NCBI GenBank assembly: GCA_008632985.1
Contig: QPGO01000134.1
Location: 62,001 to 126,000 of the forward strand
Direction: 5' to 3'
Length of the DNA: 64,000 nucleotides
Source of the DNA: Psammoneis japonica
Lineage: Eukaryota
Part shown: positions 1,336 through 32,990 of the stretch, in pieces
How the letters are laid out: each line of letters starts with the position of its first letter
Numbering within the stretch: the first letter of the stretch is position 1
The notes under the pieces: generated by a model
What the model was told of the DNA's origin: nothing
Seen by the model: only the letters and a program-made list of their open reading frames with translations
Databases searched by the model: none
Program-made: the position numbers and the translations under genes

Positions 1336-1599
1336 CTCTGGAATGACCGTAGCTCTCTTCTGACTTTGGTGGGAAAACACCACTCGCGGATTAAACGGTG
1401 GTAGGCCCTACGCTCGCGGATTACGCGGTTGATGACAAGACTGTCATGAAACTTCTATCCATAACCCCTAACATAACAACCATAACCCTTTGTACCCCGA
1501 AGCGCATATCTCGCGAGGCTTTTTTTTCAAATCCATATAATCCAGCATGAAGAACTTTTGCTGAACCTAACCATACGACGAAAACACGATGCTAGCGGT

Positions 1600-3010
1600 T
1601 CCAAACAGGTTGAATTGTTTCAGAACACATTGTCAGGACAACAAAGGCAACCAGGAGAGCCCCATCATTGTGCATTCCCTGGAGGTCCATGAGGAATTCT
1701 TTGTCTGGCAGCGCACACACGCACACACCCCTTGTCCAGCTCCTCATTCATTGCTGACCCCAATGGAAAAATGGGGCTTTTTGCAGTTGAAATGAAGGCA
1801 GTCTCTAACAATTTTTTGCATGCTTCCTGCACCCATCAACAAGGTCCTGAACATCATGGTTCAAACAAACATGGTTGACAATCCAATGAAGACTCTCCAG
1901 ACCCAAGCCATCAATTTGGCAAACTTCTTCATTCAATTGCTTGGATCCTGCAGTTTGGTGCCTTTGTTCTGTCCAGCAAACTCTTTTCTTCACTTGATCA
2001 TTGCTTGCTTCAGGATCTCCTCTTCACCTCCTCCTCAAACCTGCAGTTTCATCCCCTGAAGAACTGTTGTGTGAGATTGCGTCTCAAAGAATGGAGGAAG
2101 CCATGTGGCCCCTGTTGAAAGCAGCCAACAGAGTGCTGGCAGACTGGCCCTGCATTGCTCATTTTCCCACTCATGCTTGGACATGGAACCTCTCTCCCAC
2201 AGCAGCACCTCCCTGTCTTCTTGAAGGAGAAAGAGCTCCTGGCCTTGTCACACATTTTTTGGGGAGGGGGTTCAGCAATTGTCCTACACCGCTTTTGTTG
2301 CCTCTGAACAGTTTTGTCATTTTGTGCGCAGATCACTGATTTGCACTTCTCACTCTCCCTGTCAGATTTGGGCTCCACCAGCTGCTGGCTGGGCATGCCA
2401 CATGAGCCCTTGCAATCCAGCTTTGCTTTTCGTTTCTTGCTTGGGAAAGTGCTGACTGTTGTGGCCTTGATGACAGGTGCCATTCATGGCGAGAATGGGG
2501 AGAGCACTGTCGAGTGTGTGCACAAGGCTGGCATGGCGGCCAGAAGGAATCTTTTGCAGAAACTGTGGGGATGGCAAGTGTGGCAGCACTTGTCTTGTGG
2601 GCTCCAGTGGGCTCCACCGCTTTTTTGCTTGTCGTCAAAGGCACCTGCTGGAAGCTGGTGTTGCGCAAGTGCAAGAACCTGCTGGCAGAAACTCTTGTGT
2701 GTGCCCTTTGCGCTTGCCTGGTCTTCAAGGAGCCTGGGTCACTTTGACACAATTTGCTTTTTATCCAGAAGTGTTTGGAAGCACCAGCTGGTTGTGGAAA
2801 AGACACACAGGTGACGTGGTGTGTGCAGCTGGCGGCAGCCGAGGGCACTGGAGTGGGTTTGTGCTTCCCCAACTGTGAGATGTGAGAGAGGAACTTCTTT
2901 GGCATGTCACCACTTTGTGGCCTTTAGCATTTGTTGTAACACTGCATTTATGAGAGGCTTGTTTCTTTTCAGAATCCCACTTCAAAATGTGTGTGTTCGC
3001 ATTCATGTGA
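1600..3010. repeat. Decayed CpG- and TpA-depleted insertion, unclassified (probable TE relic)
   Basis: Abrupt compositional switch to TG/CA-rich DNA between two normal genes; no recognisable domain; boundaries approximate. Confidence 0.5.
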
Positions 3011-4689: not shown

Positions 4690-7559
4690 TCATATCTTAC
4701 TCTGGACGCGGCAGGCAATGGACACTTCAGTCGGCATCGTCTTCAGATAGAAGTAGCTAAACGAAAGCAGGTTTATAGACTCAATCAATTGCTAGGTACA
4801 CATTAGACAGAATCTACGTTTTGCAACGTGACTGTTCCTCTGATAAAGCAACAAAATGGCTGTTCTCAAGCATCATCCTGTGTGGCTTCCAGCAGCGTGG
4901 TGTAATGACACTCAAAATGATTTTGGACTAGAGAAAACTAAAAACGAAGAGGAAGTTGCGACAAGTTGTTCTTGACTTCATGACTGATGTGACAAGGAAG
5001 GCCGGGCTCCTCAATCCAAGCGTGCAGACTCAAGGACCTCCACCTTACTTGCCATTTCCACCAGAAATGTTTCCAGATGTGTTGTCTTGCATCTTGCCAA
5101 GTCAACTGCAGAGGAGGGTTCCCATTGCAAGGTGCCACTTGATCTTTGTAGTGAGCTTTCCTTGCTGTGTGTGAAGGCGACTCTTTCCCCCACATTTGGG
5201 CCATCTCCCACACCAGCAGGCTGTGCTGTTGGATGCACCATCCATCAATTCCAAAGTCAGTGATTCTTTGGATGCTGCTGTGGTGAGCAACACTCTCTCT
5301 TTGGACACAAGGTGCACCAACCCCTGCAGCTGTTTTTGGAACTGCTCTTGTTGAGCCTCCAAAAATTGAGTGCCTGCATTCTCAAACTGTTCATGTTCCC
5401 CCACCAAGAGACTCCCACAGACATTGCAGCTGACATTTCTTGTGCAATGGCCAGCAATGAGTTGTGAGATGCTCCCTTGCTTGTGACAATGGTGGCACAC
5501 ATGTTGTGTTGACTTGGCATTGTTCTTGCACACAGCACTGCCAGACAGGGTGTCCTTGAGCATTGCATTTTTTGGGAGTCGTCATCCCCTGTCCACAGAG
5601 ATGCACGCATCACCTCATTGACAGTTTCTTTTACCTCCATGATCCAAGCTCCCCCCCCCCATGGAGACAGCATCTGCCTTCCTTTGTGAGTCTGACCAGG
5701 AGGACTGCCAAAACCATCCCTGCCATGAAGGAGCCATGCATTGACTCAAGAAAAACACACCATGGAGCGGATTGCCAATGAAGCCCCTCTCAGTGCAGCA
5801 TGGATTGACCACATTGACCATCCTCAAAAGAACATCTCCACTCTCAGGAGAGCAGTTGTTGACAGGCCTGCAATCATCAAGATGTTGGGAGAAGGTCCTC
5901 TGGCACTGTGATTGTGGGCAGAGAGATGACACGGAGTTCAGCATTTGTTGCACAACAGAGATTGCACCCAAGGCCATTTTGTTGTTCACTGTTCACTGCA
6001 CACAAGGCATCTCACATGCTCCTGCTGAGATGAGTTTTGTTGTCATGCCTCTTGGAAAGTGGGGCAGCTCTGGATGGGCAGAACCCCATGATGGCAAACC
6101 AGCCACAACTTCTTCACCATCAAAGACTGCAGATTGTGTGTTTTCATTGTCAGATCTGTTGCACTCAAACCTGCACTTTGTGGCACCAATGCTTTGGCCC
6201 ATCATGTGTCACCCTCCAGTCACTGTGAGTGAATGCAAGCCATGCATCTGACCTGCAGCACATCCTGGCCATGAATTTGATGCCCACAGCACATGTCAAC
6301 ATGGGCACAAGTTCAGTGTCAATGCATGTGGAAAATGCACCAGTGGGTGGGCGTGTCTCTGAGAAAACCTTCAACAGCTGCCTGAATGGAGGGACCCCTG
6401 TCCACTTTGCACTCACCTGGATGCTGCGGATTTGCAAATCTCCAAGGAGATTTGTCTTTTGCAAAGAGCTCCACAACTTTTGCCCTGTGACCCTCCATTG
6501 CTTTAAAACAAATGTCATGACAAAAAGAGTCACAAAATCTCCATGTCCACAATGGGGTGCCAATGGACAAGCAGCTGGTGTGGAGAGAGTGGCAGAGACC
6601 ACACACATGAAGCCTTGTTTGGAAGCAAAGCAAAGAAGCTGGGTCAGGATGGTGTCAGCTTGCACAAGACAATGCTCAGAAAGCCACAGCTCTTGCACAA
6701 TGAGAAAATGAAAGGGAAGTGCATCCTGAGAGGCATTGAGCTGGCATGAACTTTTTGACGCCATGATGTGCACTGTCATCTTCTTTCAACTCCATCTTGT
6801 CTCAGAGATCTGGTGGATTCACAGAGTGCAGCTGGATGGTGGCATTTCTTCAATGGACATTTCTCCATCCAGTGGGCTGTGCTTCAAGATGTGCACATCC
6901 AACAATCTGACATGTGGCACAAGTGCAACTCAGAAAACATGCACAAACCAGACTGGGTTTGGAATCTGCAGATCATCGGCACCCACATTTGGAAAGTCAT
7001 GAGGGCATGCTTTGGGAACAACACAATCAAGACAACTGTTGCAGAGACCAAACCACTGGGGACTCATCTGAGAGAAGAATGGCAAAAGCAAAGATCACAA
7101 GAATTGGGCATGAGCACAAAAAAGAAGACCTGGCCAAGGATTGTGATTGCCTGGTGTGTGATGACATGGAGGAGCATCTGAGTCACACTTCAACAAGTCA
7201 ATTTAAAATTGGTTGACAACGATGAAGCCAGTTTTCAACAATTGCATGAAAGAAGCACAAGACACAGCTGTGTGGGGTGCCTGCAAGACCACAAGTTGCT
7301 TTGGGTGGATGTCACATGATGCCAAGACAGGCAGTTGCACTCACTTTTGTCAGTGCCTGAAAGTGTGTGTTGCAGCAGTCTGTTTGGTTGGTGTCACTGG
7401 CAGAGCCGCAATGGCACTGTCAAGTTGGCGATGTTTGCTCTTGTCATCTTTTTAAATCAAACTTCTTAGAGTGTTTGTCAACTGTTGGTGCCACAAACAC
7501 AGCCTGCAGACACAAATGCATGCATTTGGTCTAAAGGGTGTGGAGTTGACTGCTGCAAT

Positions 7560-9600
7560 TTTGCTGGCACTGATGACACTGCTGGACATGAAATGGCAAG
7601 GTCATGCACATGACCCCACTTCTGTCTGGAAGGTTGATTTTGAATTTGGCTGCATGACATCTCACAGCTCCAAGCTTTTTGGATCTCCCACTCTAAACTT
7701 CCACTTTTTGTTCTTCTTTGCAACTTGCATGGTGCTGCCAACTGCTGCAGTGTCCTTGACCTTGCCAGCTTTGTCTGCAACTCCAACAATGCAGGTTAAG
7801 TCAGGCTCCATTCCACTGGCCACAAGATTGTCCACAACCACCCCGCCCATGCAGTCCTTCAGTTCAATCAGTGGCACAAGCTTGTGTCTCATGAAATCAC
7901 ATCCTCTTCTCTTCCAACTGGATGGGCAATGGAAGAAGTCTCCATTTCATGCTGGCAATTTGTGAATCTTCACTCAACCCCCATTGGATTTGTGGTTCTC
8001 ATGATGTTCAGCGCTGCTTGTTGCAAGCATTGCAGACACCATCCCCATCATTGTCCACCTGATTGGCATTTGACACAAAGGGCAGTTGTCAAGGTTGTCA
8101 GGCACACCATCTCCATCCACATCTGCACAATCTCTGTCTGTCAACTTCTCCAAAACCCAAAGAAGTTTGTCAGAATTTGCAACAAAATGCAAAGTTCCAT
8201 TGACTGGTGCCAGTTGCCTTGGAAATGAAGAACTGTGGCCAGAGCCAACATTCTCCAGCATTTTGCTTGCACTGCTGGTTGGGTCATGAACCCAGAGATT
8301 GCATCCATGAACAAAATCACTTGCACCAAAGCGCAACTTTCCATCCAGTGGAGTTAAATTCAAAGCAAACAAGAAAGTTCTGCAGTGAGCTGCATTCTCC
8401 ACCAATTGGGTTGTGCCAGCACTGGAATTGTGAACCCAAAGTTTGCCTCCAAGAGCTGCAAAGTGCAAAATCTGCCCACTGGTGTCAACTCATGTGGATC
8501 AGAAGGACTGCAACCAGGATTTTTGTGCTGCACCAGTTGAGTTGTGCTGCTGATGGGATCATGAACCCAAAGCTTGTGTTTGGGCTTTCCGTTGTTGGCA
8601 GAGCAGTGTGGCTTTCCTTCCATCAGCATCAAGCATTGTGTGTCACCCAACATTGCACCAGAGTGTGCAGAGCCTCCTCCACCAATTGAGTTGTGCCACT
8701 GGTGGGATTGTGAACCCAGAGCTCAAAAGTGCAGCTTTGCAGCCAGCAGTGTCAAAAAGCCAGGGCACAAGGAACTGCTGCCTTGGTTGACATTCTTCAC
8801 CAGCCCAGGTGTGTTGCTGATGGGGCTGTGAACCCGCAGCTCCAGTCTGTGCTTTCCATCATCTGCCACAAAGTGCAACTTTCCATCCATTGACACCAGG
8901 CCAAGCAGACCTCAAGAAGTGCCTTTTGGATTGACATCTTTCACCAACAATTGAGTTGTCCTGCTCAAGGGATCATGCACCCAGTGCTCACGTCTGTGTT
9001 TTCCATCATCAGCTGCAAAAACAAGTTGCCATTCATCAGTGTTTCCCAAATGTGCATTTTGGTTGGACCAAATTGGCATTTTGGTCGAACCAAAACACTT
9101 TTGTTGACCAAATTGCCAGACCGACCAAATCAATTTGGTCGACCAAATTGACATTTGCGAAATCTTGACCAAATTCATTTTCAAGTGCATTTCCACACAA
9201 ATTGTGCTGACGCAGCTTCTACGAAATTTGCGTGGCATGTTGACATGATTGCTTTCCAACGGAAGATTCCCTCCAAAGCACGCCAAATTCCGCTGACCAA
9301 AATGACGTTTTCGGGAAACAAAATCATTTTGGTTGTGAGCATCAAATTTGTCAACAAATTTGGTTCGACCAAAATGACAATTTGGTCCGACCAAAATGCA
9401 CATTCGGGAAACACTGTTGGCATCAAATTGTTGAACAAGCATGGCTCCCATTGTTCACAAATTCTGTTGTGTGCCACTCGTGGGATCATGAACCCAGAGC
9501 TCAAATCCACGCACTGCTTTGAACATGTCAAAGTGCAACTTTGAGAGAGATCCACCATCTGTGCAGGGGTGACCCTCTCCACTCACACCTGCCCACACTG
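7560..9600 (-). pseudogene. Degenerate ELWxxDGT-type repeat protein with a thrombospondin type-3-like Ca-binding motif
   Basis: Repeated 'GKLxF.A...ELWVHDP...TQLV' units across frames, followed by 'DVDGDGVPDNLDNCP'; frameshifted and interrupted by a MITE. Confidence 0.65.
9037..9416. mobile_element. MITE with ~58-bp terminal inverted repeats (CAGTGTTTCCC...GGGAAACACTG; hAT-like ends)
   Basis: 9037 cagtgtttcccaaatgtgcattttggttggaccaaattggcattttggtcgaaccaaa is the near-perfect reverse complement of the end at 9416; internal gaccaaa repeats; no clean TSD seen. Confidence 0.8.
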
Positions 9601-12600
9601 GGAGAATCAAAAGCCCCCGGCAAAAACAGGATTGAAGATCTTCTGGTGCAAAAGAGAAGTGGTGAGAGCAATGAGACTGCCAGATGGACAGACAGCCAAA
9701 TGGAAGCAACAAATCCATTTCTGTGCCCGACACCATGTGAAGAGGAAATTGGGTGGGTGACTGGAGCAGCACCAATTTGGCAGCAGCAAGTTGCCAGGGA
9801 GCAGCCAAGGCAACAAGCAACAATGACTCCAAGCAGTGCAACCCCCCACCATGGGAGGCTTGCAACATTGACAGGGTTGGGGCAAGCAGATTCCAAGATG
9901 CTTGACTTCCCAAAAAAGACAGTGGATTCATTTGCCTCATTTGCAGCATGCAGAGAATCCATCTGCATGATGCAGTGCACAGATGGAAGCTTGCAGCATG
10001 CAGGAAAGTGAGCTGTGCCAAGGAGAGAATGTGTGTCAACTGAGTCAATCACCTTTTTCATGATGCACCCAATGACAACTCAGTCAATGATGACACCAGC
10101 ATGCTTGCATTCAATCTGCTTTCCCAGAGCCATCTTAAAAGTGGCCAAAGGCAGGATCAGTCACTTCACCCACACTGCAAAATGGGAAGAAGAGACTCCC
10201 AGAGCTGTCTTGAAAGCAGCCAAAGGATGAGTCACTTCACATCTGTTGCAGAACAGGAAGAAGAGACAGCTGGAGAAGAGGTTGCCTTGGAGCAGCGGCA
10301 TGGGTGGGGGCTCTGTCTTGACATGAGGTAGTCTGGGCTGCACATCCATGGCAAAATGAGGTGGCAGTGTGGCCTTCTGGGGAGCAGCAGAGGCACTGGA
10401 GGCTGGAATGTGGGGTGGGTTCCAGGTTGATGGTGGTGGCAGCAGAAGACAGAGCAGTTGCTGCAGGGTGCAACTCAACAACAGGGTGAGTCACATTGTG
10501 TGCAGCAAGTGTCTCAGTGGATGGAGTGAGACAGCTGGGGGTCCACATGTTGCATCGGTTGCAGGTGCAATTGGCAAATTGCCATCTTGAGCCAATGCTG
10601 GGGAGGACAGAGTGGCCTGTGTCAAGGACAGTTTTGCTCACCAGAACGATGCTGTCATCATTTGCACAGCCAGAGCAACAAAGCCATGTGCCACAACCCT
10701 TTGCATGTGGCTGCCTTTCCTTTTTAGAGTTTGTCTGACATTCCAGCACAGCACACTGTGGCATTGTTGTCCAAAGATGCTGAAGAAGAAGAAGCTTCTT
10801 GATGATGGACATGTGATCTTTGTGCTGCCAACCATCAAAAAAGCAAAAAAAAGCCTTCAAAGTTGTGCAGCTGACCAATGTGCTGCATGGCAGAGTCATC
10901 TCTCTCTTGAGATTTTGGCCCAGGAAAAGCATGACAAACAGTGAGATGTCCCAAACATTTTTTCAATGAATTTTGTGCCAGAAAACATTGGCCCAAAACC
11001 TTTTTGAGGTTCACGCCCACTGCGCACACACCAGCAAAGCTCAAGCGGGTCCATGTCTCCCCACAGCAGTCTCAGCTGGACAGCAGCCATGCCTGCCAAA
11101 GCAGCTGGCCTTCTGAAATGGCTGCTGGCTGGCGGCAAGAGGCAGAGATTGTGCCTGCCATGTGAGCCAACAAGGGCTGCCTCAGCTGCGGGCCTGGCAC
11201 ACCAAAAAACAGATGTGTGACGTGTTCCAGTCCCAGGTGACGCACAAAACGACAATCGATTTTGAATATAAATTATGTATCTTTTAGTGTATGTAGCATT
11301 TTCATATAAAATACTTAAGCGGATTGGCTTTTATAGGCGTTGAGAGTATGGACATTTAAATAGTTTTTTGTGGGGTATTCAAGTCCTCATGGGATATGTA
11401 TCATAAACTTCCTCAGTAGACTCAATACTGATTGTACGTCAGTAGATTTATACTGAGATTTCTTTGTAGGTAGAAAACCTACCATGTAGCATCGTAGAAA
11501 GATATATTTAGGTAACATCCAAATAACGGCAATATTTTCGCCGAAAATCATCCGTTGTGTTACGAATCTATTAACGCAATGAAAAACATAGATAGCACAA
11601 TAACAATGACATTGCAACACTCACACGAGTCTTGTTAGTGTTGCAAAACATTTATATTTGTATAAATCTATACTTTTGGTGGTGAAAGTTCGATCGTAAG
11701 TTAGGGACCTCGCAAAAATCGCGCAAATGTCGTTTTTGTGCACGATTTGGTTCACGTGCGGCTGGAACACGTCGTGTGCAAAATGCGGCCTGGCCTGTGT
11801 CCCATCAACCACAAATGACCCAACATTTCTTTTCTCTCATTCTTTTTTATGACAGATGCTTTTGCACCAAAATTCTTTGCAGCAATGAGGCAAGTGACAC
11901 ATCACAATGGCGCAGGTGCAGCTCGTCTGCTTTTGAGAGTGCGGCAGCCAACATGGCTGGAGCTCCCATTGTTCCACAATCCCAAAAATTTGTTTGAAAT
12001 TCACGGCACTCGGGCAGAGGGAACCGTGGTGAAAGCAAGGTTCAGAGTGACAATGGGAAAGTGTGTCATGGCATTAACGACTTCAGCATAAAATGTGATC
12101 CCTTGGCATTGGTGTGTCATGCGTCAACAGGGTGCAACAGTGTGTGACGTCAGCGACAAAGTCCTGCTTGCGCTTGCTTGCTTGGTGAAGATTCGGCAGA
12201 ATGACCGCACATCACCATGAACAAAAAAATTTACATCACAATCAACATTGTCATGCATGAGTGATTTTAAAATTCTAACGGGACAAGGGACAACCAGACC
12301 CGCGAACCGACCAACACCGATGAAACTGCGACCGCACTGGCACATGCACATCGACCATGGCGTTGTCGGTGATCCTAAAGTAAAACTACAGTACATCGCT
12401 ACTCTAGAGGGGCACTGTAACACATAACAGCCGGGAAAGTCAACTCGTTCGTTCCATCTTTGCTCTCCCCTTGCTCACCCTGAACCCGTTAGTTGGAATG
12501 CACTATGTGTCATTATTTTTGGAATTTTCTGCATACATCATAATGGCGCGGTTTTTTATTCCATTATTCAGGGATATATATTTTAATTGAATATGTACTG

Positions 12601-14134: not shown

Positions 14135-17100
14135 AAGCGTTGAAGAGGAAGCCACAGTGTTTGCTTGTTTTTGCATTGGAGTATGATATCTAAATGATTA
14201 TACTAGGAAAATTACGATTTTGTGTGAACTCCACTAGTGTTTCACTCATTGCGCACATTGGCTGGCATGGCTTCGGCGTTGATTCTTGGAGCAGGATGCA
14301 ACCGCTTGGAATTGAGCTTGTGTGAGAGGACACAGATGCGCACCGAGATGCGGTCAGAACACGCAGAGGTCTAAGATCATTGCATTGGGGCCCTGGCCGC
14401 AAATTGGTGTCCTTCGCTCACAACTGACATGGTGCTCTCCTGTTGATCTAAGAGATGCATGGCAACACTGCATTGAATCAAATTGGAGGACAGACAAGTG
14501 AGAAGATCTTGGTGGAGATCTGGCCAGGTCACTCTGGCCATTGATCTGTCTCCTGATGCTTGCAATGTCATTGAGAAGAGAGTGCCAATGATGACCCAGA
14601 GTTCCTTGATGGCAGAATGACTTGCAAAGGGCTGACCACAAAAAGGACAAATGGACAAGGCATTGAAAGAGACTGCAGAGAAATGACCCACATTTGCATG
14701 ATGTTTTTTGAAGCTCTGAATAAAGACTGGGAGTCATGAAAACCATGAAATGCATGACATGTTGAAGCACGCTTCTCTGCATTGGCAGGAAACTCAAAAT
14801 TTGGTTGCTCTGTGCTGCCATTGTTGTTGTTGTTGTAAAGAGCAGATTGGCGTTCACATGTGCTGCATTTTCCGTTCACAGGTGCAACTTGTTGTGTGCA
14901 CCGCTGGCCACAAAATCTGTGTTGTGGTCTTCTTCACCCCCCAACAAGAAGACATTGTAACAATGAACATTTGCCAAAGAAGATGTTCTTCCACATGACC
15001 ATGGAGAAACCAGACATTGCAGTTGAGGGAGCCAGGGAGTCATTGAATGTGTGGCAAAGTCCAAGCAAACATGAGGCTTGTGGCTCAAAATGAACAAATG
15101 GCTTGCAGATGCAGCTGGTGATGCAAAAGTGTTGCCCTTGCTAAAATTGCCAATGCTTTTTGCAGACATTTTTCTTTCTGAGTGGTGGAACACTAAAAAG
15201 CAGTGCATGCACTGACAAAAAGAAAAAGAAGAGTGCTGCATGATGGTGAAGAGAGCACAGTGTGCACTCTCATTTCGGCAATGGCAAAAGCTCATCACTG
15301 CCTCCTTTGCTGCTGCCATGCACTTGGCAGTGTGAACAATGCCTCATTGCAGAACACACTGTGCCACAAAACATGCAGTGAGTTGGTCTGCAATGTGCTT
15401 GTTGTTTGGAGCCAGTTTGCCTGCAGCAGCAGCTGTCCATCACATCAAATGTGGCACCTCTCTTGTTGAACCAACAGGTCAATGTCACCAAAAGGGAATC
15501 CTCTGAGGATTTTTGCACCACTTGTTGCACTGATCCTGGTCTCCATGGTGGTTGTGGTTGGCCCAGAAGTTCTCAACAAACATCAATCTTACAATGCAAT
15601 GGGAACCAACTGACACCACAATGTGGTTCATGCAAAGCAGCAGTTCACTCGAAAGAGTGAGCTGAAAAGAAGGTTGGTGAGATCATCAACAAGTGTGCAT
15701 TTATTTCCAAAGTGTCATCTGATCCACCACACCAGGATCTGAAGCATCTTCTCTTCAAAAGATTTGCTTCTAAGTCTCTCACATTTCCTGCTCATCTGGA
15801 TGCTCTGACACACTCCTGCTGCTCCAATTGATGTTTGGAACACTCGCTCCACACACACTGGAGCAATCCCATCAGGGATCTCCAAAATGAATTTGCTGGG
15901 CCATTGTCATTCACCACAGCACATTGCCAGTTGGCATGTCACCCTTCGTTGGCAAAATCCAACATGTCATTGAAGGCATTTCTTGCAATGTCTCAAATGC
16001 GTTCCACAAACTTGGCAATGTGGGCATGGTGAGTCCACTCCACTTGGTCCTGCAGTTTGTGAGGATCAACCGGTTGGTCCATGATCCAGCAGTTGAGGGC
16101 CACTTCAGGAATTGTCACAAATGGTCCCATCTTTGGACAATGCCGCTTTAAATGGGATCTTGACTTGATGATGTCATGACAAAAAAACAGCACCAACTTC
16201 TGTGCATCAAAGGCAAATCCATTCTTGTCTCAGACTGGTCCACACCAGACCTTCTTGCAATGCTCATCTTCCATCAAACTGAGCTTCATGGGCAGGCTGC
16301 AAACCCCTTTGTTGTCCATGCCACATCTGAGACAGCTGACTCTTGACATGTGTGTCAGTGCACAAATGTCTTGTTTGTCCAGGTCCAGAATGAGTTGCAG
16401 GTTCCCATTCCTGGACCCAGCCTTGCATTGGTCCGGAATCATCTTCTCATGCTTGTTGAGCTCTTTGTAATTTCAGCAACATGTCATGCCCTGGTGCAGT
16501 TTGAGATCAAATGACAAACCAAACATCTGTCATTGCTCACCAATTCCACACAGCCTTGCATCTTCCATGGTGTTTTTGTTGTCATGTGTGGAGAACATCA
16601 GTGCAGTGGCAGACACACACCTCAGCTGACTGTCGGTCCAATGCATCCCGTCAATTTTGTGCAACTGCTTCACAGCAATGTGCCTTTGCTTCCACAATTC
16701 AACCACAGTGGTTTGAGTGTCACAGTGTTTGTGCATGGCACATTTCCGACTGTGTTGTTCCCATCATCACAATTGATCATCAACTGACACAGGTCCACAG
16801 CATCCTCACACTGATGTGGACAGGCTGATGCGCTCATCTTGCTGCTTGCAAACCAATCTGTAAGATCCACTCTGCAAATGTGAAACTTGATGCTGCTCCC
16901 ACAACATGCTCTGTGGGATGACATCTGTCTTGCTGTGTTCCTCAGTCACCAGCAGTCTTGTGGGATCACCCAGCTCATCAAACCATGGCCAACAATCATT
17001 TGGCCACTTCTGTGCAATGGGTGCAAACTTCTCATCATCTGCAATGACAACCACTTCATCCATGATCATTGTTCTGTTGCACAATCAATGTGTGCAGGTC

Positions 17101-17229
17101 TTGAAGCTCTTGTTGCCATGTTCACTCTGAAAGTGGAGCTTTCAGGGATTCACCCACATGCATCAGAAATTCTTGCCTGACGTCACAAAGAACAGGTCTC
17201 ATGCCTGTTGGGCTTGAAGTCAACAACCC

Positions 17230-20200
17230 ATGATGGCTCACTTGAGCTTCTGAAACTTGCTTCTTGCCTTGCAACAGCTTCATCATGAAGTCTCCCAACA
17301 TGTCATGGCCAGGGCAATGCTGTGCTTGCAAGTTGTCCTTTTCAATCTGATTGGCAACAAAGAAATGTGGGATGTTGAGTGCTTGTGACCACTTGCCAGC
17401 ACTCCTGCACCCATTGGTCTCCAACAGGACGGCACTCTTGTTGTCCTGATGCAGGATGTTCTTGTCAATCAGATGCCCCTGGTGCTCCATGAAGAGCTTC
17501 ATCCACAGCATCATGGCCATGGCATCATTGACTCCAACAAGCTCAGCTTCTGTGCTGCTTTGGGTGTTGAGCTTCTGGTGCTTTGAGATGGCCTGCACTG
17601 CTCCATCACCCACAGTCACAACTCCTCTGGTGTGTCTCTTGAAATTGAGGAGTGCTGCAAATGATGCATCCACATGCCACTTGACAACTCGGAGGTCCTT
17701 TGCTCTTGATGCAGCAACTTTGTTTTCTTGTCCGGTTCATGCACTTGAGGCAATGGACCAGCTTCCCCCAATCCTTGTTGGTGGGGGCTCTTGCTCACAT
17801 GCATGATGTGGTGACAGTGGGGTGCACATCCATTTGGCCTCTCTCAGACAGGAACAGTCCCTTGGCCACCCACGTGTGGAAGATCTGAGCCTTCGCGTCC
17901 CACAATCTTGTGCCGCTGGTGTCAAACATCTTCTCTCTGGCTGGTGTCATCACAGAATCTGCACTCTTTGTCTTTTCTGGGAACTGATCAATTGTCTTGA
18001 AAATGCAGCCTGCAATGTCAACCCTCACTTTTCCTTTCTGGCTGAAGTCCAGGGTCATGCTGAGACAATTGTGTCTCTTCCCTCGTGCAATGACAACTTC
18101 TCCATGACTGCCACACACATTGTCAAGCCAGCGCAGGAATTCATCATTCACCTCTGGTTCTTGTGGCTTGACAACAGGTCATCCACATGAAATCAAATCA
18201 TGTGCTGCTTGCCGTGAACTGTGCAGTTGGCAATGCATGGATCACACAGGTTGAACTCAAAGCAACCCTGTCTTCTCCAAGTCTTTGTGGAATTTGCTGG
18301 TGAGAAACATCAAGGCTGCCATGGCCTTGGTCCTTTCAGTTGGAGTCACACACTTGACTGATGATGCTGGTGCACAAAGCACACTCATTCATGCGACTGC
18401 TTCATGTCTTTCTGCAAGTCTTCATGCCCCTTCTGGCCAAAATTCTTTGAGGACTTTGTGGAGCAAACATTGCTGGGCAAAACATGTGCCCTCTCCACTT
18501 TGGAGTTGGTTGCCAATCTTGCACATGAAGTGTGTGATTGTCATTGCTGTCTCCACTTCACACACTTGATGTTGTCTTTTGGATTAGGATGACTCACATC
18601 AGCAGGCAGGTGGTGGCTGCACTTGAGCTTGCACTGCTTTTTCACCATTCTGCCCACTTCTGCCACTCCTGCAAATCAAACTTTCTTCTTTTTATGTTCG
18701 CGCAACTTCATGTTGAAGGATGCTCCACTCCTTGGCATTCTGTCAGGAACATGGCTCTTGCTTCTTCCTCCAGTCAGTTTCCCACCCAACTGTCATCCTC
18801 TTTGGACTCTTTGTTGTCACACTCTTCATTCTCTTTGACTTTTTGCTCTTCATGAGCTTTGTGTTCCTCATGAGCTTTGTGCTGTTGATCAGGACTGGAC
18901 CTTTCATTGGCCAGCATCTCATTTGCTTGTTCTTTGCATTCATCATCTGACCCAGGTTTGTCTTCACAGTCTTTGTTTTCTAACTCAGTTGTGCAGCTTG
19001 CATCATGTTTGCTTTCTTTGCAGTCTTCTTCTTTGTCATCACTTTTGTTGTTGCTGTCACTGTCACTTTTGTCATTGTTCACTCCTGCAGTCCCATCAAC
19101 ATCACATGCTGGATTGTCTCCACATCTCACTGTAAACTTGAGTTCCTTGATGCCCTGTTGCATGGCCTTTTCCTTGACAGCCACAATGCACAGGTTGGCC
19201 AAGTGAGTGGAGGTGCACTTGTGGAGATTCAACAACTTGTTGCTTGTGTGCAAATTCACAGCACAGTGGCCACCCTTGGGTGAGTTGAAATGTGGTTGCA
19301 GGTGGATGCTGTTGACACCATGTGCTTTCACAGTGTTGGTGTTGTCACACTCAATCAGCATTTGATCATCTTGTCAAACACATGCAGTGTCAAAACACTG
19401 CACACTTCTGCTGTGTCAATGCAGAGGGTCACACACCTTCTCTCTGTTCCTCACAGATCTCAGGCAGAACGGAGACAATGTCGTTCCTCTCATGGTGGGA
19501 ATGGCGCACATGCTTGGTCTTGCTTTTGAGTGTGTGTCCATTGGTGGACCCCACATGGCCGCCATTCTGTCAACATCTTCAGGTGTGATGGATGGGTTCT
19601 TCACCTGATTGGATCACAGCGACAGCTTGAAATCCATTGCAATGGCTGTTCCAGCCGTGCAACGCAGTCTCAATGCTTCCGCAGTGCTAGACACTTCTCA
19701 TTTAGTGCAGCCTTTCATGCTCTGTTTCACAGTTGGGACAACAGCTCCTGATGCACTGCTGTGCATCTTGTTGATCTTCTTCATGACCTTCTTGTCCTTG
19801 GACAGCGTGCTCACATGTGACTCATCTTCTTGGAGTTCTTTTGTGTGGTCAAAGAATCACTGGCTTGTTGCAAACATGCACAGTCCAACGTTGTTCACTT
19901 TGAACACCGTGACCTGCTTGCCAGTTCTTTTTTGTCTGATGGATGAAGCTCATCTGCCACTCGGTTGTCACACACAATGCAGTGCTTGCTGCTCTTTGCA
20001 TCCTTGAGACTCAGGATGTTTGGCTGTTGCATTCTGTGATCCAAGCTTCACATCACCCCATCCAGGCATGGTGCAGTCTTCATCTGGGGCATCCACTCAT
20101 GCATTGGTGGATAGATCAATGTCCTGATCCTTGCTGGTCATGCATTGTGCACTGATCTCTGGCTCACTGCCATGCCAAGGGCAGAGCCATTTTGAAGGAT

Positions 20201-22660
20201 GATCTCATTTGACTTGACAAATGTGTTGGCTTGGCTCAAACTTGTCTCTGGCCCTTCTTTGGCCTGTTCATCCAATTGGAGCCCATGCCATGTGATGTGT
20301 CTTCTGCTGGAGCTTGCAGATTGACTTGATCTGTGGGTGTTAATGCTGGCATTGTTGCTGCTTGCAGACAAGGTGTCTTCATTTCTCTGTGTGTGACTCT
20401 GTCCCCTGATGTCCAGTTTCCTGCCAGCGTTCTTGTGCCAGTCCTTCTGCAGAATCTCATCCTCACACCTGCAGTCTGGGGACTTGCAATTTGCTTTGCC
20501 ACAACAATGGCATGCCATCTTGCCACTCTGTGCATGACTTTGGTCTTGTGGATTCTTGGACTTGTCATTGCTCTCATTCTCTTTCTTGTCACTCAGATGT
20601 TTGTCACTCTTCTTGTTCCACCTCTTGTGTGAATGGTCATCTTTTGTTGGATGGTTCAGCAACACATCCATTGCCTTCTCAAGGGTCTTTGGATGTGTGA
20701 ATCCCTCCCTGGGCTGCAATCTCTCACAAGGCTCTCCTTGAGAATCTTGCAGCAGCAGTCATCACTGTTCTCCATGAACAGGTGTGTTGTCCATGTCTTG
20801 AACATGCAGCATCACTCAGCACTTTCTGGTCCACTGCATCAGTGCAGTCCTTGCACTCCATGGCATTCTTGATGAATCCATTTGACATCTTGCTGCCAAG
20901 ATCTTTGCTTGCAGTGTCCCATTGATTGCTGAATCTTGACAGGCCGTCATTCAGTGACTTGTCCTCCAACTGCTTCAATTCCAGCACGTGCCTCACAGAC
21001 TTGACAAGTGCACGGAACAGGTGTCGACCTCGCATGGAGTCGAGTGCAAGCAACTGGATTGGCTTCAGTGGCTTGATTGGGTTGTCACTGATCCCTGCAC
21101 AACTGGGATTGGCTTGCACTGTTTGCTTCATTTGCTTGGAACAGTGATCTTTTAGGATCACTGTGAGTGCAGCACTCTTGTTCTCTTTGAGCTTCTTGAC
21201 TTTGTTGTTGTGGTCATGCCACTTGATCTTGTGCTCACATTCCAGTTGCCTTTCTTCTCTGGCCCTCTCATCTTTCAGGGTCTGGCAGTCTTTGGCTGAG
21301 CTTTCTGGCACTGCGGTTGTTGCCTTTGCCAGTGTTGGTTTCTCACCATCGAACTTCATGCATTTCATGTCTTCCAGGGACCTTGCCATGCACATGCCTC
21401 TGTCATGCTCCTTCTGCACATGGTTGATGATCTTCTCCTTGTCTTCTTTGAATGTCACATTGCATGAGTTGCTGTTGATTGATGATGGGCAAAACTTCAT
21501 TTCTGGCTTGAACCTCTTCTTGGGGTCAGTCTTCTTGTTCTTGTCACAGCAAGACTGACAGAAATTGAAGGCAAATGGCAAGAATTCAAACAACAACTCC
21601 TTGCTGCTGTCTAAACAGCAGATGAGTCTCCGCTCAGAGACCGTCACAGGAGCCGAAAGACGTGCAAGTTGGTGCAATTGGGCCACTGTTGTTGTTCTTG
21701 TGAGCCGAGTGGCTCAAAAGCAAACTACATCGCATGCACACGCGCGGAACTGAAGAGCACAAAACTGTGCGTGGCAAACTAAACAGCGCGTGACATGTCG
21801 CGCGCACCTGAATCCTGTTCAAATCCTGTCACTCCCCAGTTTGCTTGAGGAGTCACAGAAACAGATTCGACTTCGGGTTGACTAAAGAACTTTGGAGTCA
21901 AAGCACCAAAACATGAGGAGACAAGAAAGGATCAAGATCCGAGAGCAATGTTGCATTCTCCAAGTGGGTCATCTTGAGATGAGCTGCGTCTCCCCAATTG
22001 CAGATGCCGTTGTGCTTTTCAAAGCTCAAGGCACACTTGGGATCTTGTGGGATTGCACATCCGCACTTGCAATGGAAGGAGCAAAGCTTGGTCTGGTTGA
22101 CAATGTTGAATGGCGGGGCAACATTGCAGGACAATGCAAACAAGTTGACATCGCCTTCACTTCCTGAGCAAAGGTCGTAAAGACTGATGGCCGTCTGTTG
22201 GTTCTTGGAACGGTTGCCACACTGGGCTGCTGCTGGAAAAACAGAGCAGTGCTCGTGCAGGGTGGCATGGCATTTGCACGACTCGGGGAACAGAGCAAGC
22301 ATGAGTTCAAAGGCACAAGCGGTGGCAAGAATTCAAACAATGACTCCTCACTGCTGTCTAAATGGCAGATGAGTCTCCGCTCAGAGACCGTCACAGCCGA
22401 AAGACGTGTGAGTCGGTGTGATCGGGCTGCTGTTGTCATTCTTGTGAGCCGAGTGGCTCGAAAGCAAACTACATCGCGCGCGCATGCGCGGAACTAAAGA
22501 GCACAAAACTGTGCGCGGTAAACTAAACAGCGCGTGACATGTCGCGCCCACCCAAATCCTGTTCAAATCCTGTCAAAGACTTCCTGCCTCTGCCGCCCCT
22601 GCCTTGGGCACATCCTCAGCTTTTAGCAGCACTCATTCTTCCTCCTCCTCTGCCACTCAT
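17230..22660 (-). mobile_element. Degenerate Ty1/Copia (CoDi-like) retrotransposon: gag, Zn knuckle, protease, partial integrase, RT, RNase H
   Basis: RNase H 'DASFA...QKLNTQSSTEAELVG...QDNKSA...DMLGDFMMKLLQG' (17122-17673 ORF); RT 'FEFNLCDPC..FHVDDL' near 18170-18265; knuckle 'CHCCGKANCKSPDC'; gag starts MSGRGGGR at 22660; many stops and frameshifts; its own LTRs not identified. Confidence 0.9.
21556..22575 (-). mobile_element. Short (1020 bp) non-autonomous LTR element nested in the Copia gag, TSD AAGAC
   Basis: TGACAG...CTGTCA termini; AAGAC at 21551-21555 and 22576-22580; full LTR at 21556-21831 with the PPT (ctccccag on +) beside it; second LTR 22323-22575 truncated. Confidence 0.9.
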
Positions 22661-22737
22661 GGCTCAGGTTTCCTGTTTCAGATGATTGAATGGAGGCCAG
22701 TGCTGCATGCACCAAATGCAGTGCCTGTGACTCTTTG

Positions 22738-25113
22738 TGACAGGATTTGAACAGGATTTGGGTGCGCGCGAAATGTCGTGCGCTGTTTAGTTTACCGCGC
22801 ACAGTTTTGTGTGCTTTAGTTCCGCGCGTTCGCTCGCGATGTAGTTTGCTTTCGAGCCACAAGGCTCACAAGAATAACGACAGTGGCCCGATTGTGCCGA
22901 CTTGCACGTCTTTCGGCTCCTGTGATGGTCTCTGAGCGGAGACTCATCTGCTGTTTAGACAGCAGTGAGGAGTCATTGTTTGAATTCTTGCCATTTGCCT
23001 TCAATTTCTGTCAGATTAACAGTCTTGTTTGTTCGTTCGTCCACAGCGCCTAACGCCTGCGTCAACTGGCCAGCCTGATCGGGAAATCCAACCGATGTAA
23101 AATAAGAACGGTTCGGGGGTCTTGTCCACCTCTAGTCAGCTTACCTGCAGGGGTTTGCAACCCGCTGCTCCGCTTGCAAGCAACCCAAAGCGCCACTGGC
23201 TGCGGGTTCGGACGTGCCGGCACAACTCTATGGACCGGATGGGAAGTTTAGCACTTGACAACGAACGGGATAGCACACCCCGGCGACTTCTGATTTTAAG
23301 ACAGTCCAAGATTGGATCCCCCAAGTCTCGTACCTCGAGACCAGGCCTCCTGATTGGATGTCCCAAGTCTCGTACCTCGAGACCAGGTCTCCTGATTGGA
23401 TGTCCCAAGTCTCGCACCTCGAGACTGGGCCTCCTGATTGGATGCCTCAAGTCTCGTGCCTCGAGACTGGGCCTCCTGGTTGGATCCCCCAAGTCTCGTA
23501 CCTCGAGACTAGGCCTCCTGATCGGATGCCTCAAGTCTCGTACATCGAGACTGGGCCTCCTGATCGGATGCCCCAAGTCTCGTGCCTTGAGACCAGGCCT
23601 CCCAACTGGACTCTCCACGTTTCGTACCTCGAGACCAGGCCTCCTGACTGGATGCCCCAAGTCTCGTACCTCGAGACCAGGCCTCCTGATTGGATGCCTC
23701 AAGTCTCGTGCCTCGAGACCAGGCCTCCTGATTGGATGCCCCAAGTCTCGTACCTCGAGACCAGGTCTCCTGATCGGATGTCCCAAGTCTCGCACCTCGA
23801 GACTGGGCCTCCTGATTGGATGCCTCAAGCCTCGTGCCTCGAGACTGGGCCTCCTGGTTGGTTCCCCCAAGTCTCGTACCTCGAGACTGGGCCTCCTGAT
23901 CGGATGCCTCAAGTCTCGTACATCGAGACTGGGCCTCCTGATCGGATGCCCCAAGTCTCGTGCCTTGAGACCAGGCCTCCCAACTGGACTCTCCACGTCT
24001 CGTGCCTCGGGCCTCCCAGTTGGATCCTCCACGTCTCGCACCTCAAGACTCGGCCTCCGGATTGGATCCCTCAAGTCTTGCACCACAAGACTCGGCCTCC
24101 TGATTGGATCCCCCAAGTCTCGCACCTCAAGACTTGGCCTCCTGATTGGATCCCCGAAGACTCGTGTCACAAGACTGGCAAGTCCTTTTAGATCCCAGAA
24201 GTCTTGCAGCACGGGACTGGTTGCCCCAATCAGACATCTGCAGCCTTGCACCACAAGATGTCTTGCTCCAATCCAATCCCCGAAGGCTTGCACCTTGAGA
24301 CTCGTTTCTCCAATTGGATCAGTCTCTCAGGAGATGCAGCTGAGCTTGCAATCGGATTGGTGGAACACAAGACCACCGCTTGTGCCTTTGAACTCATGCT
24401 TGCTCTGTTCCCCGAGTCGTGCAAACGCCATGCCACCCTGCACGAGCACTGCTCTGTTTTTCCAGCAGCAGCCCAGTGTGGCAACCGTTCCAAGAACCAA
24501 CAGACGGCCATCAGTCTTTACGATCTTCGCTCAGGAAGTGAAGGCAATGTCAACTTGTTTGCATTGTCCTGCAATGTTGCCCCGCCGTTCAACATTGTCA
24601 ACCAGACCAAGCTTTGCTCCTTCCATTGCAAGTGCGGATGTGGAATCCCACAAGATCCCAAGTGTGCCTTGAGCTTTGAAAAGCACAACGGCATCTACAA
24701 TTGGGGAGATGCAGCTCATCTCAAGATGACCCACTTGAAGAATGCAACGTTGCTCTAGGATCTTGATCCTTTCTTGTCTCCTCATGTTTTGGTGCTTTGA
24801 CTCCAAAGTTCTTCAGTCAATCCGAAGTCGAATCTGTTTCTGTGACTCCTCAAGCAAACTGGGGAGTGACAGGATTTGAACAGGATTTAGGTGCGCGCGA
24901 AATGTCGCATGCTGTTTAGTTTACCGCGCACAGTTTTGTGTGCTTTAGTTCCGCGCGTTCGCGCGCGATGCAGTTTGCTTTCGAGCCACAAGGCTCACAA
25001 GAATGACAACAGCAGCCCGATTGTGCCGACTTGCACGTCTTTTGGCTCTGCTGTTTAGACAGCAGCAAGGAGTCATTGTTTGAATTCTTGCCATTTGCCT
25101 TCAATTTCTGTCA
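22738..25113 (+). mobile_element. Non-autonomous LTR element (2376 bp) of the same family, TSD CTTTG
   Basis: LTRs at 22738-23013 and 24867-25113 (the latter with a ~29-bp deletion); CTTTG at 22733-22737 and 25114-25118; PPT-like aactggggag before the 3' LTR; no gag/pol inside. Confidence 0.92.
23311..24320 (+). repeat. 42-bp minisatellite, ~24 units, with a higher-order 9-unit duplication
   Basis: Unit ~ccaagtctcgtacctcgagaccaggcctcctgattggatgcc, translating as PKSRTSRPGLLIGC; degenerates towards the right end. Confidence 0.95.
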
Positions 25114-26011
25114 CTTTGGAGTGAACATTGAACCAACAGATGTCAATGTCGCCAAAAGGGAGTCCTCAAAGGTTTCCTGCGCTGCTCATCACACCTGTCC
25201 TGGTCTCTGTGGAGGCTGTGATTTGTCTTGAAGTTCTCAACAAACATTGATCTTGTGATGCAATGGGCACCCACTGACACCACAAAGCAATTCGTTTGAA
25301 CCAGATGATCAACTCCGAAGAGCGAGATGAAAAGAATGTTGGTGATGTCGGCAATGAAGAATGCACACTCATTTCCAAGTGTCACCCAATCCACCACATC
25401 AGGATCCAAAGCATCTTCTCTTCAACAGATTTGCTTCTAGGTCTCTCATGTTTTTGCTCATCCAGATGATGTTGTTCCAACATCTCTTGCACCGAGATCA
25501 CACCGCTCCAAAGCAAGCACTGAAAAATGTCGCCAGTGCTCGCGAGACCCAGGTTGTGCCTCTGAATGTTGAACCAGCATGATCAGCCTTTGAAATTCAG
25601 TGCCATTGTTTTGCTGACTTTTCTTGTCTTGACGGCTTTCAATGATGAAGTGCAAGGTGGTCCACACACATGGGGTTGGGGTTAATTTCCTCAGAACCCG
25701 CCTGACACAACGCACAACTGGCGATGGGCCGTCACACGTCAAAACCTACTCCTACATGTACAATAAGCACAGTACGTGGTAAACAATGAACATTTTCATT
25801 AATAATTTTTTTGAATTGACCGAATTTCAGAGTATTCCGTTGAACACTGAATAAATGTATAAGATGCTTAATGCCATCATTTCATCCTGAAGCCGATACT
25901 GTTCAGATGATCTCCAATCGCCCACTTTTTGCGATTTATTAGGTCAGTCGCAATACTTTTCAAAGCATAAAAAACACTAGCCGACGAATTCGAACAGAAC
26001 AGAGAATTAAA

Positions 26012-26497
26012 ATGGTCGTAAGTAATAAGGACCGCTGGTTTCGAAAAATGGAGCAACCTGCGGATGAAGCGCTCATATCGTCCTCAGCAGCTTGCGACTC
26101 AATGAGGGAACTAAAGAAAAAGAAGAATTCGAGACTTCGTAAAAAGAAGAGAAGGGACACATCAGTCATAAGTAACGAATATCATGACAGCCCTTTATAT
26201 GGCGACAGTCCTGTTCTGAACGAGAGTCATTTTTCTACGTCCTCCGGTATCATCGATTCAGAACAGAGCAGCTTTCGCACTGTGGATGATGTCACTACTC
26301 ATTGTGTGAGCAAGACCTGTCACTTGAAGATTACAGTGGAGACGACAGAGAAATCTGTGGCGAACAAAGTGCCGCCACCAAAGAGGACAGAGCCTCAACC
26401 GCAGCTCAGATCATCCGAGGCTTCCGTCGTTCAGAACTCAACCACGATTACTTCCGATGCGATAGCTGATTTACTATTCATTGGTTTCTGTTCTTGA
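26012..26497 (+). CDS. Hypothetical protein (basic patch, Ser-rich)
   Basis: 161-aa ATG ORF in normal-composition DNA; no domain recognised. Confidence 0.4.
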   Translation: MVVSNKDRWFRKMEQPADEALISSSAACDSMRELKKKKNSRLRKKKRRDTSVISNEYHDSPLYGDSPVLNESHFSTSSGIIDSEQSSFRTVDDVTTHCVSKTCHLKITVETTEKSVANKVPPPKRTEPQPQLRSSEASVVQNSTTITSDAIADLLFIGFCS

Positions 26498-26593
26498 TAA
26501 CTGGTTGGAAGTTTTCTAATATGATTCATAATTCTAGGAAAGGCTAAAGCCGAAGCACGAAATTTCTTCCTCCCATAACTAGCTATGGTCATT

Positions 26594-30013: not shown

Positions 30014-30187
30014 GGGCACTTGTAAGGTGCTTAGACAACACAAACTGGAGTTCAGGCGGATGTCGTAAGCGAAGACTGAAGAGCGCAAATAGAAGTGTAC
30101 TTGAATTACTTATAAAGAATATCTATGGAACATTATGTATGGATTCTGTGTTTCCCTACCTCTTTTCTGCGTGTGTGTCGTCTCCGT

Positions 30188-32448: not shown

Positions 32449-32990
32449 GCCTTTTAGAGTCAACAAACTATTGCTTTTAAGATTCGGAGATAATCTGTGA
32501 AACGAATGAGCTATGATGATTGTCTTTTGAGCACTTGTGTCAACCGGAAGTTGTCTTCAAAAGTCAGAGTTCGCGTTGCTTGATGGAGGTGGAGGGAAAT
32601 TCTGACCAAAAAAAAAAATTATAATATATTTATCCATGAATGATTACAAAAAAGAATCTGCAAGAAGCGATTCGAAGTTCGACGGGTGCTGGTCCGATAC
32701 ATAGACGACAGAGATGAGTGGAAGTAGGCAACTAATCTAAACAGGGAGTAAAAGCTGCTCCTGCCTTCCATAGAGTTTGTTCCTTTATTGGTAGATACTC
32801 TCTCTAGTAGAGCAAGTACAGTAACTATTCTCTAGCTAGAGCAGGGTGACAGAAACTCTCGCGAAAGACTAAAAGTGGTGTGTGTATCCGATTATCAATT
32901 GTGCGTGCATCAACAGATTCAAGATGGACCGGACAAGGACCAAGAATCAAATAAAAAATTACATCCACCTGACTCACTCTAACGCTCTGT

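Follow-up and report, generated by a model that had tools for sequence, protein, structure and literature searches.

Transitions confined to pyrimidine-purine steps, and probable decay of TpA to TpG and CpA, in retrotransposons and repeat blocks of a eukaryotic contig

The DNA described here is a 64,000-nt window of contig QPGO01000134.1 (positions 62,001 to 126,000; assembly GCA_008632985.1, Psammoneis japonica). The window is a gene-dense eukaryotic stretch with Pfam matches to porphobilinogen deaminase, a capping enzyme, a sulfotransferase, glycosyltransferases and ABC transporters, and it also contains two retrotransposons with long terminal repeats (LTRs) and three blocks of DNA from which the dinucleotides TA and CG are almost absent (Table 1). 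An earlier reading of the letters alone, referred to below as the sequence-only reading, had placed four copies of one LTR, A to D, all of them correctly, and had proposed that TA is the ancestral state at the sites where they differ, with TG and CA derived. The question addressed is whether TpA decays to TpG and CpA in the repeats of this genome.

Table 1. Elements, blocks and duplicated genes of the window, with coordinates counted from its first letter.
Feature	Position	Strand	Remarks
LTR copy A, 5' LTR of element 1	22738..23013	+	276 nt, TG...CA ends
Element 1, internal part	23014..24866	+	holds a 42-bp tandem array and segment X
LTR copy B, 3' LTR of element 1	24867..25113	+	247 nt, 29-nt internal deletion
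Target-site duplication of element 1, CTTTG	22733..22737 and 25114..25118		
LTR copy D, 5' LTR of element 2	22323..22575	-	lacks the last 20 nt
Segment X of element 2	21832..22322	-	
LTR copy C, 3' LTR of element 2	21556..21831	-	276 nt; most private changes of the four copies
Target-site duplication of element 2, AAGAC	21551..21555 and 22576..22580		
TA-/CG-free block with both element insertions	14501..21555		0-3 TA and 1-10 CG per 500 nt; rho(CA+TG) 1.8-2.2
Second TA-/CG-free block	5001..11000		0-3 TA per 500 nt
Third, smaller TA-/CG-poor block	1501..3000		
Tandem ABCG-type transporter duplicate	30182-32418 and 32985-35233		76% identity; normal TA and CG content

The LTRs pair as A with B in element 1 and D with C in element 2, a pairing that the sequence-only reading did not include. 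Element 1 (2,376 nt, plus strand) and element 2 (1,020 nt, minus strand) lie head to head with a 162-nt spacer (22576-22737) between them, and a separate 5-bp target-site duplication encloses each of them. The LTRs start with TGACAG and end with CTGTCA in both pairs, apart from the missing end of D, and a short purine run, ACTGGGGAG, stands directly before the 3' LTRs B and C. Segment X occupies 24373-24866 in element 1 (494 nt) and is common to element 2, where an internal deletion joins the truncated LTR D directly to it. A and B are 94.7% identical, C and D 89.3%, and LTRs of different elements 88-90%; segment X is 97% identical between the elements, differing at 13 of 494 positions. The 42-bp tandem array of element 1 comprises 20.5 copies (23310-24165) arranged in a nine-unit higher-order repeat, with 23688-23987 97% identical to 23310-23609 and with degenerate older units at the 3' end. 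As no internal reading frame of either element matches a Pfam family above threshold, both are non-autonomous LTR retrotransposons. They share with terminal-repeat retrotransposons in miniature the 276-nt LTRs with TG...CA ends, the 5-bp duplications, the purine run, the lack of coding capacity and their total lengths, but nothing after A could be recognised as a primer-binding site complementary to the end of a tRNA (the sequence has no TGG start, and no tRNA was compared). The sequence start that follows LTR A also follows the LTR in other copies of the family.

The block that received both insertions continues through the spacer and through 25114-25500. Across all blocks, bins of 500 nt contain 0-3 TA and mostly 1-4 CG, with rho values of 0.0-0.18 for TA, 0.03-0.34 for CG and 1.57-2.18 for CA+TG, and the edges of the blocks are sharp, within 500 nt. 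Window-wide, the observed/expected ratio is 0.43 for TA and about 1.35 for CA and TG, and in the genes at 26-64 kb rho is about 0.6 for TA and about 0.9-1.0 for CG. In total the blocks amount to 14,942 nt with 48 TA, 124 CG and 3,440 TG+CA, and genic DNA has 1,787 TA and 2,317 CG. TG and CA make up 95.2% of pyrimidine-purine (YR) steps in the blocks compared with 61.9% in genic DNA, and within the blocks they outnumber TA by 72 to 1, TA being 1.3% of YR steps. Given that the density of YR steps (0.242 per base in blocks, 0.240 in genic DNA) and the G+C content (47.9% and 47.1%) are nearly equal, transitions alone suffice for the contrast, and losses of CG and of TA to TG and CA would offset each other and keep G+C level. 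GC profiles do not reveal the blocks. The absence of TAA and TAG stop codons leaves many long spurious reading frames in them, and no old LTR pairs were found within them. The TA steps that survive in the blocks lie in TTTA/TAAA more often than genic TA do (22 of 48 compared with 266 of 1,787; p = 5e-7), a context that also holds 512 of the 3,440 block TG/CA sites, and this enrichment suggests a site preference of the process. Within the second block lie an imperfect palindrome (9020-9432) and a degenerate tandem repeat (8150-9030), and bin 9001-9500 retains 16 CG, unlike the neighbouring bins.

Next to C, the final 156 nt of the block (21400-21555) are multi-copy among the contigs of sequencing run X1, with 4-16 contigs carrying a variant letter per polymorphic site, and the contigs listed differ from the window by 13-18%. 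Among these other copies there are TG/CA doubles, in which one copy has TG and the other CA at the same step, and some steps that are TG or CA in the window are CG in them. A 297-nt X1 contig of depth 58.9 shows no difference to 21400-21543, a segment without TA and CG, which argues against an assembly artefact. An origin of the pattern in long-read base-calling error at modified bases, or in selection against TA and CG, is in our view very improbable. In its favour, of the words sampled from 20500-26500 a fraction of only 0.71 occurs in X1, and the library type is not on record. However, besides the identical contig, the X1 contigs themselves carry family-wide TG/CA/TA variation, the block edges are sharp, and selection is unlikely when the 88 block reading frames of at least 80 residues give no Pfam match above threshold and a single match below the cut-off of its family.

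Divergent copies of block repeats provide a comparison that does not involve the LTRs. If two copies of a repeat resolve ancestral CG or TA steps independently, half of those sites should end up as TG/CA doubles. In the block paralogues 15466-15802 and 25128-25468 (77% identity), 14 of 64 YR sites are such doubles and the ratio of transitions to transversions is 58:18. A control pair of tandem ABC-transporter genes at 76% identity has 7 doubles among 374 YR sites and a ratio of 264:263, and the two pairs differ at Fisher p = 3e-8. Assuming that the repeat began with a gene-like composition, CG alone would yield 10.7% doubles, which 14 of 64 exceeds (p = 0.007), while CG plus TA would yield 19%, which 14 of 64 fits (p = 0.33). 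The palindrome 9020-9432 was rejected as a second such comparison, as it aligns over only about 100 nt, with doubles at 5 of 30 sites. The normal TA and CG content of the transporter duplicate indicates that gene duplicates of such age are not targeted.

Among the four LTR copies the differences have the same restricted form. Our alignment, A1, reproduces every site state quoted by the sequence-only reading: in the order A/B/C/D, ggatt-NN-ggt (columns 22-23) is TG/TA/CA/TG and aagaa-NN-ac (columns 138-139) is TA/TG/CA/TG, and at three further sites a single copy departs from TA, with TG in C alone at gtttacc, CA in C alone at ctttagtt and CA in B alone at gatgtag. YR steps cover 136 of the 276 alignment columns, yet 35 of the 36 columns with transitions fall inside them (binomial p = 3e-10). 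As transitions preserve the pyrimidine/purine skeleton, each YR step can be treated as a character with four states, CG, TG, CA and TA. Of 68 such sites 43 are invariant, 13 have CG against TG and/or CA, five have TA against TG and/or CA and seven show TG and CA only; none shows both CG and TA. The claim that most other differences are CG against TG/CA thus holds in part, the 25 variable sites dividing 13, five and seven. A similar separation is seen in the 42-bp array, where two positions per unit vary without CG (TA 9, TG 5, CA 2; and CA 8, TG 7, TA 1) and true CG positions vary between CG and TG only.

TA is scarce throughout the elements, at 0.18-0.37 of expectation in the LTRs and 0.07-0.10 in segment X, with CG at 0.49-1.17. 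This TA poverty excludes a direction from TG/CA to TA of the kind caused by repeat-induced point mutation (RIP). At ten hypervariable LTR sites the younger element 1 keeps TA twice and CG once, and the older element 2 keeps neither. Singleton changes comprise three TA-to-TG/CA in 20 TA site-copies compared with no new TA in 132 TG/CA site-copies (p = 0.002). Five TA sites change slowly, with TA intact in 17 of 20 copies, four of the five being in TTTA; surviving TA in the TTTA/TAAA context is seen at columns 51-52, 56-57, 80-81 and 219-220. Five sites that differ between C and D have the same step, TG or CA, in both A and B, which fits a source lineage that was gradually losing TA.

Family-wide frequencies were derived from contigs of X1 and of three small runs of the same sample, X2-X4, placed on C plus segment X. 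They are summed word depths of contigs, unphased and not copy counts, and apply to the columns listed; TA minus CG is the frequency of T at the first column of a step minus that of G at the second. In X1 the abundance of the LTR is extreme: its summed word depth is 66,000-780,000, where a flanking contig has about 59, values that are not copy numbers. At columns 22-23 in X1, T is 83% at the first column and G 49% and A 51% at the second, so that TA exceeds CG by 34 points, with TG at most 49% (the plurality), TA at least 34% and CG at most 17%. The excess of TA is 23 points at columns 147-148 (T 57%, then A 66%) and 7 points at columns 215-216 (T 52%, then A 55%), and TA is thereby more frequent than CG at all three three-state or TG/CA-only sites among the columns listed. 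A reaches 55% at column 57, a narrow TA majority, and T 81% at column 80, also a TA majority. The sequence-only reading had argued that a family consensus of CG or TG/CA would imply the opposite, RIP-like change; the consensus is TA at columns 57 and 80, and at columns 22-23 TG and TA are near a tie. CG is 0 at columns 147-148 in all of X2-X4, and at columns 22-23 it does not exceed 6% in X3 and is 0 in the other two runs; TA amounts to 15-44% at both sites in X2-X3. Of the self-complementary states, only TA is thereby shown to occur at the contested sites. Where C alone has lost a CpG (columns 41, 60, 153 and 162), CG persists in the family at 93-99%. In X1 the summed contig depth is about tenfold higher over the final ~90 nt of the LTR (21555-21647) than over its middle (21679-21771), and for segment X it is about 100 times less; the LTR ends seem to be common to other, more abundant elements or fragments.

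Much of this variation could in principle come from CpG decay alone, in which every hypervariable site was once CG, deamination of methylated cytosine gave TG or CA, and TA arose by second transitions or by RIP-like change of CpA to TpA. The 13 variable sites that clearly went from CG to TG/CA, the retention of CG in the family at the private losses of C, and the CG found in other copies of the flanking repeat at TG or CA of the window are all expected on these terms, and columns 42-43 show that a TG/CA pair can come from CG. The quantities, however, make the proposal quite unlikely. Ordinary CpG sites have lost some 13-17% per copy, which predicts 0.2-0.4 TG/CA pairs per element where 3 and 8 are seen. 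At the contested sites the family has CG at 0 to at most 34% and TA at 7-34% or more. TA does not build up with age, being absent from the hypervariable sites of the older element and nearly so from the blocks, and it is the most depleted step in the elements, the opposite of what RIP produces. The doubles of the block paralogues likewise exceed the CG-only expectation.

The direction of change at the contested sites is not given by the four copies alone, since at columns 22-23 and at columns 138-139 an ancestral TA and an ancestral TG each need three changes. The three sites with a 3:1 distribution have an alternative in family polymorphism combined with one TG/CA-to-TA change in the sister LTR. 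The direction is indicated by the surroundings, outside the coordinates to which the sequence-only reading was confined, namely the blocks and the excess of doubles. With these included, the proposal that TA is ancestral and TG/CA derived becomes the best-supported reading, and TA was most likely ancestral at the contested LTR sites, judging from the end state in the blocks, the trend with age and the family frequencies. Compared with the block equilibrium, the 7-34% or more of TA in the LTR family is far too high, and it is best read as inherited. TA is more depleted than CG in all repeats examined, which implies a loss of TA at least as fast as that of CpG.

The abundance of the LTR family raises another explanation, namely that the LTRs were not mutated in place, and that old TG/CA/TA polymorphisms between source lineages were shuffled by gene conversion or by strand transfer between two packaged RNAs. 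The four copies would then be uninformative on direction. Besides the depth of the family in X1, it can draw on the contested sites being near 50:50 across the family where ordinary CpG sites are 93-99% uniform, and on the states of the four copies, which resemble independent draws from the family frequencies; it also accounts for the large difference in rate between sites without hot spots. We nevertheless consider it unlikely. At least three separate short tracts would be needed in A and B and more in C and D, all within a divergence of 5-11%, and neither the confinement of transitions to YR steps nor the TA-/CG-free blocks and the doubles of the block pair would be explained. A local in-place process is further hinted at by the adjacent, oppositely oriented LTRs D and A (22323-23013), where TG prevails over CA on the plus strand at hypervariable sites (14 compared with 4; p = 0.03, post hoc). 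Block bins nearby (20001-21500) also lean towards TG, for example 73 to 45, and the lean of D, A and these bins may reflect a local strand bias of the mutation process.

Taken together, we put at about 0.68 the probability that decay of TpA to TpG and CpA is real in the repeats of this genome and explains the contested LTR sites. The repeats would be subject to a transition process restricted to YR steps that turns both TpA and CpG into TpG or CpA. The four LTRs would represent a snapshot of this process in two young non-autonomous retrotransposons, and the flanking blocks its end state. A contested site would have been TA at insertion, becoming TG by an A-to-G change or CA by an A-to-G change on the opposite strand, and TA inside TTTA/TAAA would be lost more slowly. 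Targeted deamination of adenine in DNA, the mechanism proposed for Bigelowiella natans, may underlie the loss of TpA, and cytosine-methylation decay presumably underlies that of CpG. Ordinary methylated-CpG decay in the same silenced DNA is the simplest explanation for the loss of CG.

Several observations weigh against TpA decay as the explanation of the LTR sites. A metagenome scan with a 20-nt LTR word gave 9 loci, all chance matches of 20-30 nt and none a phased family copy from which an ancestor could be reconstructed. The family plurality is TG at columns 22-23, CA at columns 147-148 and a TG/CA tie at columns 215-216, that is, TG or CA at every hypervariable site among the columns listed, and TG at 49% with CA at 17% at columns 22-23 does not fit a strand-symmetric decay of TA. 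State counts imply a spread of at least 13-fold in rate among TA sites, which the TTTA rule explains only partly, columns 22-23 themselves being in a TTTA context. At columns 42-43 one element carries a TG/CA pair derived from CG (C and D keep CG), so that the seven TG/CA-only sites are not assignable from four copies, and classes of fast TA and fast CG sites are indistinguishable from four sequences. Segment X shows two TA-vs-TG/CA differences, no more than the yield of its ~96 TG/CA targets at the background transition rate, and was dropped as a polariser because its TA differences are compatible with that rate. Gene conversion or recombination in a very large family is not separable from change of the LTRs in situ; it would undercut the premise of in situ change, but not the block evidence, which in turn assumes a gene-like ancestral composition. 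The evidence is comparative throughout, and no enzyme, base modification or new mutation has been observed.

The only report of TpA-directed mutation of repeats found in the literature is a preprint on B. natans; the other reports found concern RIP, CpG decay or APOBEC. Mutation-accumulation lines of B. natans yielded 231 mutations in an integrated giant virus and a virophage, and 230 of these were A-to-G or T-to-C (bioRxiv 10.64898/2026.01.13.699255), and according to the authors all GC-biased mutations in the viral regions were on TpA (Mettrop et al., bioRxiv 10.64898/2026.01.13.699255). TpA-poor coding sequences there are enriched in reverse-transcriptase and DDE domains, and an ADAT2-like adenine deaminase is proposed by the authors (bioRxiv 10.64898/2026.01.13.699255). 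The present organism appears to be a different one, the best match of its porphobilinogen deaminase being 54% identical.

The two cases share the change of TpA to TpG or CpA according to strand (a direction we infer here, five LTR and two array sites varying among TA, TG and CA without CG), the sharply limited target regions, and the depletion of TpA with enrichment of CpA and TpG. The blocks lie beyond both 5% cut-offs of the preprint, TpA Rho <=0.43 and CpA+TpG Rho >=1.52 (bioRxiv 10.64898/2026.01.13.699255). Confinement to repeats with genes spared is seen here in the sharp edges, the multi-copy flank and the TA rho of about 0.6 in genes. There are also differences. Here LTR retrotransposons and anonymous repeats are affected rather than viral insertions, and the evidence is comparative rather than from mutation-accumulation lines. 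CpG is lost alongside TpA with G+C level, where the preprint text contains neither 'CpG' nor 'LTR', and the near absence of G/C-to-A/T changes reported for B. natans has no counterpart here, CG-to-TG/CA being the largest class of LTR change (13 sites). The depletion here is complete, and a protective TTTA/TAAA context is seen.

Other known systems match less of the pattern. Fungal RIP is similarly aimed at repeats and restricted to dinucleotides, and erodes transposons beyond recognition of their protein domains, but it converts CpA/TpG to TpA and lowers G+C, whereas here TpA is destroyed, TpG and CpA accumulate and G+C is unchanged. Methylated-CpG decay, as in silenced transposons of vertebrates, plants and some algae, is consistent with 13 LTR sites and with the scarcity of CG in the blocks. 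It spares TpA, however, and in all repeats examined here TpA is depleted more strongly than CpG. APOBEC-type editing of cDNA, which leaves strand-specific clusters of G-to-A before integration, was rejected, as the changes at YR steps go in both directions, are not the same in the two LTRs of an element and extend to blocks without LTRs.

Rather than two separate causes, one targeting system might act on adenine in TpA and cytosine in CpG of silenced repeats, turning both into TpG on the edited strand as a G+C-neutral counterpart of RIP. We regard this as possible but doubtful. If true, such a system would exist outside Bigelowiella and act on retrotransposons, and would erase transposons at constant base composition, invisible to scans based on GC. 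A second case of TpA-directed hypermutation would in any event show that the process serves generally as a genome defence, or accompanies silencing as a by-product, and is no oddity of two viral insertions; the present case adds retrotransposons of what is apparently another organism, and end-state blocks without TA and CG at unchanged G+C. The share of TG+CA among YR steps and the frequency of TG/CA doubles between repeat copies are statistics with which other genomes can be scanned, and the protection of TTTA/TAAA is a testable clue to the site preference of an enzyme. Dating by LTR divergence would be badly biased in such genomes, as the 88-90% identity of the LTRs between the elements compared with 97% for the internal segment illustrates.

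Elsewhere in the window, Rfam and tRNA searches gave no matches, and a similarity search with a DUF6824 protein was without a match. In the capping enzyme (39317-41468) a single reading frame encodes both a Cet1-type triphosphatase domain and a guanylyltransferase domain, and the C-terminal domain of the enzyme is found in a different frame, which points to a short intron or a frameshift. The fused triphosphatase-guanylyltransferase raised the possibility that the genic part derives from a giant virus, which was rejected given that no viral hallmark domain occurs among the reading frames scanned and that several genes of the window are split between frames, as by short introns.

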